Assembly (NCBI RefSeq): GCF_055900595.2
Contig: NZ_CM148325.1
Direction: 5' to 3' (one strand)
DNA: 64,000 nucleotides
A model generated the notes under the pieces. That model was not told the DNA's origin and made no database searches. It worked only from the letters and a program-made list of their open reading frames with translations. The translations under genes and the position numbers were made by a program. Positions 2,548-57,099 of this stretch are shown here, in pieces. The stretch's first letter is position 1, and each line of letters opens with the position of its first letter.

Positions 2548-4035
2548 TTAAATCACCTCTTCGATAACCCACACGCTGACGCTGCCGCCGTTGCAAAAGA
2601 AGGTCGCTTCGCCGTTTTCGTCGGTTACTACGCTCTCTTGCCGGTTCCCCAGAAAATCACGCCAGGTTTTATTGCCGTAATTCTCTCCCAGATGAATGGT
2701 TTTTTCGCCATCATCCCCGTTCGACATGACCACCACGCAGCCGGGATATTCGTCGGTGCCACTGCGGCTAAAGGCAATGCAGTTCGGATGGTCGAAAAAT
2801 AACGTCTGTACACCGTGGGCGAAACGCTGACGGGCGAGAATTAACTCATCAAGCTGTTCGATTATTGGCATATCTATTGGATAGGTTTGCCCGTCACCAC
2901 CGACATCTTCGTAATGCGCACCGTAGAGGTCCGGATAGAACACCGAAGGAACGCCATTTTCCCGCAACAAAATTAGAGCATACGCCAGCGGTTTAAACCA
3001 CGGTTCGACCGGCGCTTCGAGGGCTTGCAACGGTTGGGTGTCGTGATTGGCAACGAGCGTCACGGCGTGGAAAGGATCGGCTTCCACTAATGTACCCGTG
3101 AAAATCTGCGTCATGTCGTAGTCGCGCCCCATGCGCGATGCTTCATGGAATTTCATCTGCAGCGGCGCATCAAACAGCATGGTTTTGCCTTCCACCTGAT
3201 CAATATACGTTTGCAGCTTATCAACTTCATGCGACCAGTATTCCGCCACAATAAACAGCGGCTTTGGCGCAACTTCTTGTACGTGTTCGATCCACTCTTT
3301 ATAAAACCATGCCGGTATATGTTTGACCGCATCAAGACGAAAACCGTCGCATTGCGTTTGTTCCATCACCCAGCGCGCCCAGTATTTAATCTCTTCCGTC
3401 ACGGCATGATTGCGGAAATCGATATTCTCGCCCATCAGATAATCGAAATTACCTAATTCATCATCAACCTGATCGTTCCAGCCTTCGCCGGTGTAGTCGT
3501 TAACAATTTTAAATATGCCATCTTCATCAGGGTTTTCGATATGGTCGATACCGCTAAAACATTTGAAATCCCAGATAAACTGCGAGTATTGCCCGGCACG
3601 AGCGGGGAAGGTGTAACGCGTCCAGCCTTCACACTCAATGATTTCTTCGTCAATTTGCGTACGGTCATCAGCATTTACACGCTGCACGCGAATAGCTTCT
3701 TTTTCATCCGCGCCCATTTTGTGGTTGACTACCACGTCCAACAGCACCGCAATGTCATTACGTTTCAGGGCGTCAATGGCGGCCAGCAGTTGTGCTTTAT
3801 CGCCATATTTAGTAGGGATGCTGCCTTTCTGATCAAACTCACCTAAATCAAATAAATCATAGGAGTCGTAGCCGACCGAATACCCGCCCGATGCGCCTTT
3901 ATAGGCGGGCGGCAACCAGACCATATTGATACCAATATCATTAAAACCGTCGGCGCGCTCGGCCAGTTCAGGCCAGAGCTTACCGCCTTCCGGGTAATAC
4001 CAGTGAAAACATTGTAACAGCGTGGGATTACGCAT
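2548..4035 (-). CDS. amyA: Cytoplasmic alpha-amylase AmyA
   Basis: Track ORF 495 aa; matches K-12 AmyA length and sequence as recalled. Confidence 0.95.
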
Positions 4036-9712: not shown

Positions 9713-11604
<1,892 letters not shown>

Positions 11605-52314: not shown

Positions 52315-54744
52315 ATGACATTAACAAGACGTGAATTTATTAAACACAGCGGTATTGCCGCTGGGGCGCTGGTGGTGACATCGGCTGCACCGCTACCCGC
52401 ATGGGCAGAAGAGAAGGGGGGCAAAATCCTCACCGCGGGCCGTTGGGGAGCGATGAACGTAGAAGTGAAGGACGGGAAGATTGTTTCTTCGACAGGCGCG
52501 CTGGCGAAAACCATACCGAACTCCTTACAGTCTACGGCGGCGGATCAGGTACATACAACGGCGCGTATTCAGCATCCGATGGTGAGAAAAAGCTATCTCG
52601 ATAATCCACTGCAACCGGCGAAAGGTCGTGGCGAAGATACCTATGTACAGGTGAGCTGGGAACAAGCATTAAAACTTATTCATGAGCAACACGATCGCAT
52701 TCGCAAAGCTAACGGACCATCGGCCATTTTTGCCGGATCTTACGGCTGGCGCTCTTCTGGCGTGTTACATAAAGCGCAAACCTTACTGCAACGTTATATG
52801 AATCTTGCGGGCGGTTATTCAGGGCATAGCGGCGATTATTCAACCGGGGCGGCACAGGTAATCATGCCGCACGTGGTGGGTTCCGTGGAGGTGTATGAAC
52901 AGCAGACCTCCTGGCCACTGATTCTGGAAAACAGTCAGGTGGTGGTGTTGTGGGGGATGAACCCGCTGAATACCTTAAAAATTGCCTGGAGCAGTACCGA
53001 TGAGCAAGGTCTGGAATACTTCCATCAGCTGAAAAAATCTGGCAAACCAGTGATTGCCATTGATCCTATCCGCTCCGAAACCATCGAATTCTTTGGCAAT
53101 AATGCCACCTGGATCGCGCCGAATATGGGCACCGACGTGGCACTGATGTTAGGGATTGCACATACCCTGATGACACAAGGCAAACACGACAAAGTGTTCC
53201 TTGAAAAATACACCACCGGATATCCGCAATTTGAAGAGTACCTCGCAGGTAAGAGCGATAATACGCCGAAGAACGCGGCCTGGGCGGCGGAAATTACTGG
53301 CGTAGCGGAAGCGCAGATAGTCAAACTCGCCGAACTGATGGCGGCGAATCGCACAATGCTGATGGCAGGCTGGGGAATTCAACGCCAGCAATATGGTGAA
53401 CAGAAACACTGGATGCTGGTGACGCTGGCGGCGATGTTAGGGCAGATTGGTACACCGGGCGGCGGGTTTGGTTTCTCTTATCATTACTCAAACGGTGGCA
53501 ACCCGACGCGTGTTGGCGGCGTGCTGCCGGAAATGTCTGCGGCGATTGCCGGACAGGCCAGCGAGGAAGCTGATGATGGCGGAATGACGGCGATTCCTGT
53601 CGCCCGTATTGTTGATGCGCTGGAAAATCCTGGCGGCAAATATCAGCATAACGGTAAAGAACAAACGTATCCGAATATCAAAATGATCTGGTGGGCGGGT
53701 GGCGGTAACTTTACCCATCACCAGGATACCAATCGTCTGATTAAAGCATGGCAGAAACCGGAGATGATCGTCGTTTCTGAATGCTACTGGACCGCAGCTG
53801 CTAAACATGCAGATATCGTATTACCGATCACTACATCGTTTGAGCGCAATGACTTGACGATGACCGGTGATTACAGCAACCAGCATATTGTACCGATGAA
53901 GCAGGCTGTCGCTCCGCAATTTGAAGCGCGTAACGATTTTGATGTGTTTGCCGATCTTGCTGAATTACTCAAACCTGGCGGAAAAGAGATCTATACCGAA
54001 GGTAGAGATGAAATGGCGTGGCTGAAATTTTTCTATGATGCCGCTCAGAAAGGTGCGCGTGCGCAACGCGTGACTATGCCGATGTTTAATGCTTTCTGGC
54101 AGCAAAATAAACTGATCGAAATGCGCCGCAGCGAGAAGAACGAACAGTACGTTCGTTATGCTGATTTCCGCGCCGATCCGGTGAAAAATGCGCTGGGTAC
54201 GCCAAGCGGCAAAATTGAGATCTACTCTAAAACGCTGGAAAAATTTGGCTATAAGGATTGTCCGGCACACCCAACCTGGCTTGCGCCTGATGAGTGGAAG
54301 GGTGCCGCCGACGAGAAACAGTTGCAGCTTCTGACCGCGCATCCGGCACACCGTTTACACAGTCAGCTTAACTATGCTGAGTTGCGTAAAAAATATGCGG
54401 TTGCCGATCGTGAGCCGATCACTATTCACACCGAAGATGCTGCTCGCTTTGGTATTGCGAATGGCGATCTGGTGCGTGTCTGGAACAAACGTGGTCAAAT
54501 CCTGACAGGCGCGGTGGTGACTGACGGGATTAAAAAAGGCGTGGTATGCGTGCATGAAGGTGCATGGCCGGATCTGGAAAATGGCCTGTGTAAAAACGGC
54601 AGTGCGAACGTGTTAACGGCGGATATTCCCAGCTCGCAGCTGGCGAATGCCTGTGCCGGTAACTCTGCGCTGGTGTATATCGAAAAATATACGGGCAATG
54701 CACCGAAGTTAACGGCGTTTGATCAGCCAGCTGTTCAGGCATAA
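52315..54744 (+). CDS. torZ: TMAO/N-oxide reductase catalytic subunit TorZ (BisZ)
   Basis: Track ORF 52297..54744 trimmed to ATG 52315 ([21 protein letters not shown]..., Tat signal RREFIK) after AGGGAGGA SD; matches K-12 TorZ (809 aa). Confidence 0.93.
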
Positions 54745-54753
54745 GACGTGAAA

Positions 54754-54773
54754 AGCGCCCGGAAACGGGCGCT
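54754..54773. repeat. 20-nt palindrome AGCGCCCGGAAACGGGCGCT downstream of torZ
   Basis: Perfect hairpin 10 nt after the torZ stop; near-identical copy at 54926-54945. Confidence 0.6.
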
Positions 54774-54802
54774 AAATTGCTGAGAAAGTGTGCTTTGTTC
54801 AT

Positions 54803-54900
54803 GCCGGATGCGACGTGAACGCCTTATCCGGCCTACAAAATTGTGCAAATTCAATATATTGCAGGAGATGAGTAGGCCTGATAAGCGTAGCGCATCAGGC
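54803..54900. repeat. REP pair (BIME) between torZ and cmoB
   Basis: GCCGGATGCGACGTGAACGCCTTATCCGGCCTAC (54803-54836) and inverted GTAGGCCTGATAAGCGTAGCGCATCAGGC (54872-54900). Confidence 0.75.
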
Positions 54901-54925
54901 AGTTTTTGCGTTTGTCATCTATCTC

Positions 54926-54945
54926 AGCGCCCGGAAATGGGCGCT
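54926..54945. repeat. 20-nt palindrome AGCGCCCGGAAATGGGCGCT, second copy, just downstream of cmoB
   Basis: Differs from the 54754 copy at one loop base; followed by AAATTTTT. Confidence 0.6.
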
Positions 54946-54951
54946 AAATTT

Positions 54952-57099
<2,148 letters not shown>

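Follow-up and report, generated by a model that had tools for sequence, protein, structure and literature searches.

We analyzed a 64-kb stretch of DNA (hereafter, the window) in which the convergent genes torZ and cmoB, named by homology to annotated E. coli loci, are separated by a spacer that holds two copies of a short palindrome, one on each side of a pair of REP sequences (Table 1). The original prediction had described this arrangement, and the sequences of the two palindromes, their coordinates, their direct orientation and the AAATT that trails both copies all proved exact, as did the Y-type and Z-type REP pair, in inverted orientation, inside the bracket and the convergent flanks, with the torZ stop codon on the + strand and that of cmoB (54952-54954) on the - strand. 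The direct repeat as a whole is 25 nt long, with 24 of 25 positions identical and a start-to-start distance of 172 nt. A search for the 20-mer at up to three mismatches recovered these two sites alone in the 64-kb window (0.01 expected by chance), and two matches were obtained in 0 of 100 shuffled sequences.

The two copies had been called near-identical perfect hairpins. Their near-identity holds, and so does the perfect stem of copy 1 (H1), which has 8 bp, a GAAA loop and fold energies of -16.7 kcal/mol on the + strand and -15.2 kcal/mol on the - strand. The stem of copy 2 (H2) is not perfect: a C-to-T change leaves a G-U wobble on the + strand and, the loss being greater there, an A-C mismatch on the - strand (-14.2 and -13.5 kcal/mol, respectively). 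It had also been proposed that the idea of a special element would fall if the 20-mer were common in standard BIMEs. An exact search of one genome per species across 100,044 species returned 28 loci, and the Escherichia hits came from four non-redundant genomes with one locus each, always torZ-cmoB. The prediction survived this search: occurrence at torZ-cmoB alone in Escherichia, together with only two occurrences in the window, rules out the 20-mer as a standard BIME part.

Table 1. Features of the torZ-cmoB spacer and its flanks, in window coordinates.
Feature	Position	Strand	Basis
torZ CDS, stop codon TAA at 54742-54744	52315..54744	+	ORF list; start from the 2430-nt RefSeq torZ of homologous E. 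coli loci
A-tract just 5' of H1; on the - strand a UUUU(C) tail, putative cmoB terminator tail	54751..54753		Sequence; - strand tail score -3.68; also in the empty allele
Direct-repeat copy 1: H1 AGCGCCCGGAAACGGGCGCT (54754-54773; 8-bp stem, GAAA loop) and AAATT	54754..54778		Same as the single hairpin of the empty alleles L001 and L009
BIME-1 left terminal motif AAATTGCTGAGAAAGTGTGCTTTGTTCA; first 5 nt lie within the direct repeat	54774..54801	+	Fits the left-end consensus CAGATTGyTGACAAAGTGCGCTTTGTTCA from 21 loci among the matches listed
Y-type REP (palindromic unit)	54802..54836	+	Sequence; alignment with other BIME-1 copies
L linker, with IHF-consensus-like site ATTCAATATATTG at 54849-54861	54837..54871	+	One mismatch to WATCAANNNNTTR; Rfam RF02751 (ES036/CssrF) at 54837-54879, 68.4 bits
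Z1-type REP, inverted relative to the Y REP	54872..54901	+	Sequence; alignment with other BIME-1 copies
BIME-1 right terminal motif GTTTTTGCGTTTGTCATCTATCTC, inverted repeat of the left motif	54902..54925	+	Consensus of 21 loci among the matches listed
Local inverted repeat GCTGAGA / TCTCAGC	54779-54785 / 54922-54928		Sequence; arms pair in the RNA fold
Direct-repeat copy 2: H2 AGCGCCCGGAAATGGGCGCT (54926-54945; one C-to-T change) and AAATT	54926..54950		Terminator-like on the + strand in the consensus scan
T-run 3' of copy 2, putative torZ terminator tail, overlapping the cmoB stop codon	54949..54953	+	Sequence and scan; also in the empty allele
cmoB CDS	54952..55923	-	ORF list; RefSeq annotation of homologous loci; Pfam Methyltransf_9 on the identical protein

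Our analysis identified the 147-152 nt between the hairpins as a complete BIME-1, composed of a Y REP, an L linker, a Z1 REP and terminal motifs. BIME-1 has been defined in the literature as one copy of y and z1 with a long L linker bearing an IHF site. In the window, the Y and Z1 REPs (heads GTAG/CTAC) are inverted, the 35-nt L linker shares the scan pattern of at least 120 BIME-1 hits and carries a putative IHF site, and conserved outer motifs occupy both ends, as judged by a consensus of 21 loci among the matches listed. The element is single-copy and extragenic, being the sole REP pair in the spacer and the sole BIME in the 64-kb window, and lying between two stop codons. Positions 54776-54929 are 88.5% identical over 154 nt to the BIME-1 of the E. 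coli pitA-uspB spacer, and 24 other BIME-1 copies match its core at 83-96% identity. The left-end consensus precedes the Y REP, while the right end, read as the reverse complement, has the consensus GAGACTGATGACAAACGCAAAAy followed by the Z1 REP; the terminal inverted repeats of approximately 18 nt thus defined share sAGAyTGnTGACAAAsGC.

No promoter was found between the hairpins, and the record of MG1655 has no REP or RIP features annotated at the torZ-cmoB locus. An Rfam search of the spacer returned ES036/CssrF only, plus sub-threshold naRNA4 matches on the REPs. The RF02751 match (68 bits) lies on the + strand and is far above the gathering score; as it covers nothing but the BIME-1 L linker, what is listed as an "sRNA" family apparently models a dispersed repeat.

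Comparison of the window with E. coli L73 showed 99.8-100% identity from 36 kb to approximately 52.2 kb, at the torY/torZ boundary, with 100% identity in the 20-24 kb segment. From approximately 52,200 to at least 62,385, identity falls to 95-97% through torZ, cmoBA, yecN, yecE, yecD, aspS, nudB, yebC and ruvC. The torZ-cmoB locus itself is 92-96% identical to E. coli, a value from which the window could be taken for a non-coli Escherichia; this is ruled out by its 99.8-100% identity to L73 up to approximately 52.2 kb. The two-hairpin allele sits on this divergent block of at least 10 kb, whose probable source is recombination with a distant Escherichia lineage, and none of the complete E. coli genomes in RefSeq has the torZ-cmoB spacer of the block.

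Alleles of the torZ-cmoB spacer

The torZ-cmoB spacer occurs in at least four allelic forms. In the empty allele, represented by E. coli 2016C-3878 (L001) and E69 (L009), the two genes are separated by a 35-bp spacer, gaaaAGCGCCCGGAAACGGGCGCTAAATTTTTAcgg, which consists of an A-tract, one hairpin and a T-tract. The locus spans 527 bp in this allele vs. 699 bp in the window, and the difference of 172 bp corresponds to one BIME-1 plus the second hairpin copy. Spacers of the empty length were present in approximately 9 of 39 evenly spaced rows of a ranking of 5426 E. coli genomes. The window-type allele, in which BIME-1 is bracketed by two hairpins, is identical in several NCBI assemblies and is also found in E. 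whittamii (L017), where the second copy reads AACGCCCGGAAACGGGCGCT; it is absent from the 5426 RefSeq complete E. coli genomes.

The two remaining forms combine BIME-1 with a single hairpin. In the K-12-type allele, BIME-1 is reversed relative to the window and its right-end motif lies against the hairpin, while the L007-type allele has BIME-1 oriented as in the window and only the torZ-side hairpin. The BIME-1 core of the K-12 type is 91% identical to that of the window, within the range of 86-94% obtained with copies from unrelated loci, and the E. whittamii core is 96% identical. Because the K-12 core is no closer than unrelated copies, the same hairpin was seemingly hit independently, and from these comparisons of sequence the torZ-cmoB hairpin seems to have been a target at least twice, in both BIME-1 orientations. 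An origin of the K-12 allele by inversion of the window allele through recombination between the palindromes is unsupported for the same reason, and further against it are the missing left terminal motif and a different cmoB-side junction.

Two other observations were made at this locus. The K-12-type (L002, L003 and L018) and L007 alleles, in spite of their opposite BIME-1 orientations, have a common cmoB-side junction, GTAATACC(A/T)GA(C/A)C-TTTA (GTAATACCwGAmC), which is absent from the empty and window alleles and could not be derived from either. Separately, in contig L034 (GCA_017058015.1, positions 2854-3972) the spacer and the last ~66 nt of torZ match the window, and beyond this point a resolvase/invertase gene (HTH_7) and a gene for a phage tail-fibre assembly protein are found where other assemblies have torZ, which suggests that torZ was disrupted there by a prophage or an invertible segment.

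Repeated hairpins at other BIME-1 loci

To place the bracket in context, BIME-1 copies were collected with an L/Z1 pattern scan, which yielded at least 120 contigs clustering into 21 distinct genomic sites among the matches listed. At each site, the 154 nt 5' of the Y REP were aligned to the 154 nt 3' of the Z1 REP, and 420 mismatched flank pairs across sites served as control. A flank repeat score of 23 or more was reached at 8 of the 21 sites among the matches listed, vs. 1.2% of controls (a fraction of 0.012; P = 7e-11), and a score of 26 or more at 7 of these 21 sites, vs. 0.24% of controls. Recognizable decayed duplicates were present at two further sites among the matches listed, and the doubling is thus seen at about half of the sites in this sample. 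The repeated segment is in each case a locus-specific, GC-rich stem-loop located 0-3 nt outside the element ends, so that on either strand the order from 5' to 3' is flank, hairpin, 0-3 nt (often T) and element terminus. About half of the sampled BIME-1 loci, among the matches listed, have a hairpin flush with one end only; such one-sided loci could be either decayed two-sided ones or insertions without duplication.

Empty and filled alleles were compared at four further BIME-1 loci, and at each of them the filled allele equals the empty one plus one BIME-1 and one extra hairpin. The BIME-1 of pitA-uspB is bracketed by two copies of a hairpin different from that of torZ-cmoB, CGAGCGGGTCAGCTGGCCCGCTT and CGAGCGGGTCAGTTTACTGGCCCGCTT; the filled allele is found in 1941 of 5426 genomes, including K-12 derivatives, and the remainder have an empty allele that is 174 bp shorter (for example caccaaaaCGAGCGGGTCAGTTTACTGGCCCGCTTtttttat in O103:H2). 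At ysgA-metE, the filled allele is limited to a metagenome locus (L061), and all E. coli genome rows inspected have the empty form, gagaaaagACCGGGTGGTATTACCACCCGGTttgg, which is 171 bp shorter. On the 3' side of fbaA, 3716 genomes are filled, and the empty allele (as in APEC O1), 167 bp shorter, has a single copy of a 35-nt segment of which filled genomes have two. The mscK-rsmS locus, filled in 3880 genomes, is less clean: the empty allele of O157:H7 is 170 bp shorter and contains one related hairpin, with flanks that are more diverged. At katE-chbG no clean empty allele was found. At four loci the duplicated segment is 20-27 bp long and exceeds the hairpin by no more than a few nucleotides; at fbaA it measures 35 bp and reaches 16 nt past the hairpin, which indicates that breakage need not occur at the foot of the hairpin.

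Three further sites deserve mention for their own features. At the cluster 8 locus (probably mgtA-ridA, from the encoded C-termini only), contig L146 was considered as an empty site and rejected, as it proved to carry a deletion. At positions 10281-10520 of this contig, the left hairpin is missing together with the left terminal motif, most of the Y REP and the terminal part of the upstream gene, and the remnant consists of the L linker, Z1, the right motif and the right hairpin, an example of a two-sided site turned one-sided. In cluster 11 (L057, L078 and L091), the flanking duplication covers at least 55 nt, and possibly ~120 nt, at ~78% identity, and includes the hairpin and, apparently, the beginning of a small ORF (ATGAATGA...). 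The target duplication that accompanies a BIME-1 may therefore sometimes extend far beyond the hairpin. Finally, on the 3' side of fbaA, a comparison of L053 with L161 showed that the duplicate terminator hairpins differ at both partners of one stem pair (CCCCGC...GCGGGG vs. ACCCGC...GCGGGC), the new copy having a better stem than the resident one, whether through conversion, selection or chance.

Origin of the paired hairpins and predicted transcript ends

The two hairpins of the window do not have equivalent surroundings. The upstream A-tract has remained with the left copy alone and the downstream T-tract with the right copy alone, and the tail scores are -1.85 for H1 and -2.17 for H2 on the + strand, and -1.61 for H2 and -3.68 for H1 on the - strand; the same asymmetry of tail scores is seen at pitA-uspB and ysgA-metE. 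In a consensus terminator scan, H2 on the + strand passed and was the sole call. H1 on the - strand has a UUUUC tail and fails the requirement of five Ts in eight, while H1 on the + strand and H2 on the - strand have no U-tract. Both U-tracts are short, with four Us on the - strand and five Us after an AAA spacer on the + strand. The spacer RNA folds with -88.4 and -77.6 kcal/mol on the two strands (z approximately -6 vs. shuffled sequence on both); in this fold, H1 and H2 form local hairpins (only the inner stem of H2 on the + strand), and the two REPs, Y and Z1, are paired with one another, as are the terminal motifs.

On its own strand, each gene is thus followed first by a hairpin that lacks a U-tract and then by a more distant one with the original tail, from which we infer that both mRNAs would cross BIME-1. 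The torZ mRNA likely reads through H1 and BIME-1 and would end at H2 followed by AAAUUUUU, and the cmoB mRNA likely reads through H2 and BIME-1 and would end at H1 followed by UUUUC. This would produce two 3'UTRs of ~190 nt that are mutually complementary, each holding the REP pair. REPs have been reported to attenuate transcription and to block decay.

We consider it likely that the two palindromes are a long target duplication, created when BIME-1 inserted at a single bidirectional intrinsic terminator common to the convergent torZ and cmoB genes. In the mechanism that we propose, BIME-1, a mobile REP pair of ~150 bp, would insert at the terminator hairpin and double it whole. Each strand would be broken immediately 3' of the hairpin in its own reading direction, the insert would be joined between the breaks, and repair synthesis would copy the hairpin on both sides; with staggered breaks flanking the hairpin, the duplication would therefore be as long as the structure (20-35 bp). 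The obvious candidate enzyme would be the HUH transposase TnpA-REP, an enzyme that recognizes GC-rich hairpins. Transposition of the IS200/IS605 type, to which the only transposase family linked to REPs belongs, has been reported to proceed without target duplication, and a review describes REPs as lacking MITE signatures. Either a different enzyme or mode of transposition, or host repair that makes the second copy after a one-sided insertion, would thus have to be involved. The direction of the event, insertion as opposed to deletion between direct repeats, is suggested by the architecture, and the empty alleles could be secondary excisions.

The original prediction had read the arrangement as a composite insulator or terminator, kept as a unit that isolates the convergent torYZ and cmoAB transcripts better than a single terminator would. 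This view has several points to recommend it: the arrangement is kept in two lineages ~9% apart (the window haplotype and E. whittamii), with an identical H1 and one change in each H2; the spacer folds far better than shuffled sequence on both strands; and in the literature roles as terminators, mRNA stabilizers and topological insulators have been suggested for REPs and BIMEs, and convergent gene pairs that contain REPs have higher expression. Selection of the whole as a unit is nonetheless not supported by the alleles. Empty one-hairpin alleles are common in E. coli (about one quarter of the evenly spaced rows), further alleles hold BIME-1 with one hairpin, and these forms are the rule in the 5426 E. 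coli genomes, none of which has the two-hairpin allele. Moreover, the bracket recurs at many BIME-1 insertions in unrelated loci, built each time from other local hairpins, and the empty/filled allele pairs indicate that it arises together with the insertion, as a by-product of it; several other loci show one of the two copies in evident decay. The hairpin nearer to each gene lacks a U-tract on that gene's own strand, and therefore the arrangement displaces two terminators instead of stacking them. We regard the composite as quite unlikely: the insulator reading is mostly wrong, and we read the double palindrome as the scar of an insertion and not as a dedicated insulator. The same prediction had denied that the hairpins are two independent terminators, and in this it was right, as both are copies of one ancestral hairpin. 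Apart from the fact that both are GC-rich stem-loops, nothing speaks for two terminators alike by chance or convergence, to which we assign a negligible probability: the identity of 24 of 25 positions extends to the loop and the unpaired AAATT tail, against a chance expectation of 0.01 in the window, and already refutes it.

Two other histories would also make the hairpins related. Palindromes are substrates for template switching, and BIME-1 could have inserted on one side of the hairpin without duplication, after which a host event (template switching or palindrome-primed repair) copied the hairpin to the other side. The absence of target duplications in the IS200/IS605 family and the hairpin at one terminus only in about half of the sampled BIME-1 loci, among the matches listed, fit such a sequence of events. 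It would require, however, that the same rare second event took place at eight or more loci and put a full hairpin copy exactly at the other terminus each time. No intermediate with BIME-1 and one hairpin at the same junctions was present at pitA-uspB, fbaA and ysgA-metE in the rows inspected, and the second copies range by degrees from perfect to decayed, which is better explained by loss than by gain, so that we judge this history unlikely. Alternatively, the hairpin may have been in tandem before BIME-1 arrived and landed between two terminators that were already in place. Terminators are known to occur close together in bacteria, and the event is not directly datable, but no two-hairpin allele without BIME-1 appeared among the spacer lengths sampled from the 5426 genomes, and the difference between filled and empty alleles is always the element plus one hairpin. 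That 8 of 21 unrelated sites, among the matches listed, had tandem copies beforehand is itself improbable, and we hold the prior tandem to be very improbable indeed.

A target duplication at the torZ-cmoB terminator, as preferred here, is the core of a broader model in which BIME-1 would be a terminator-homing, MITE-like element that duplicates whole hairpins (20-35 bp) through an integration unlike the peel-and-paste of IS200/RAYT, leaves two displaced half-terminators and complementary REP-bearing 3'UTRs, and can be reversed without a scar. We put this model forward tentatively, finding it as a whole slightly easier to doubt than to believe. As to its reversal, the 25-bp direct repeats would offer a route to precise loss of the element, which would restore the single terminator; the possibility of such precise loss would explain why BIME-1 is cleanly present or absent among strains.

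Novelty and comparison with known systems

Several elements of this picture are known already, namely BIME-1 itself, its IHF site, its documented presence/absence polymorphism among strains, and bidirectional terminators and their association with REPs. No description of hairpin duplication at BIME-1 ends was found in the accessible literature, which excluded Bachellier 1997 (PMC1207841) and Gilson 1991 (PMC333889). Since these two papers, outside the search, are the likeliest to mention such a duplication, we provisionally regard BIME-1 ends flush with terminator hairpins that are doubled on both sides as apparently undescribed.

The question of how REP and BIME repeats spread dates back to the 1980s and is still open, and their insertion has almost never been captured. 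In the model now current, the spread is due to an IS200-like HUH transposase, and duplication of the target is not predicted. The footprint reported here, with element ends flush with a doubled hairpin and with matching empty sites, would place a testable constraint on both mechanism and target choice. If our reading is true, a shared terminator has been pulled apart and complementary REP-bearing 3'UTRs have been created, which could add to the differences in expression between strains that are attributed to REPs. For the torZ-cmoB locus itself, the practical implications are limited.

Bacterial class C group II introns, which are retroelements with a ribozyme and a reverse transcriptase, insert preferentially right beside GC-rich terminator hairpins. 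A preference for such sites would be common to these introns and to BIME-1; the two differ in the kind of element involved. To our knowledge, there is no report of elements homing to terminator or attC-like stem-loops that duplicate the hairpin.

With MITEs, BIME-1 has in common a small size, the lack of coding capacity, terminal inverted repeats (~18 nt), flanking target repeats, and empty and filled sites. In MITEs, however, the target duplication is short and fixed by the transposase, whereas here it is 20-35 bp long and follows the length of the hairpin. The REPIN/RAYT system, in which REP doublets are mobilized by TnpA-REP, an IS200/IS605-like HUH tyrosine transposase, likewise features an inverted REP doublet with a spacer, and the REPs of the insert belong to the E. 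coli family that is bound and cleaved by this enzyme in vitro. No target duplication is expected in that system, whereas the hairpin is doubled at five loci with empty alleles. BIME-1 as already described (RIP/RIB) shares with the insert of the window the inverted Y and Z1 REPs, the 35-nt L linker with an IHF-like site, the outer motifs, the single copy and the extragenic location. Its definition is silent on the flanks, where here and at seven or more other loci the element lies between two copies of a resident hairpin foreign to the repeat family.

Finally, a catalogue of bidirectional terminators contains 306 entries, 78 of which are associated with REPs. The empty alleles have the same architecture as such terminators, with an A-tract, a GC-rich hairpin and a T-tract within the 35-70 bp between two stop codons; in the window, this architecture is split into two hairpins 172 bp apart, each with one of the two tracts.
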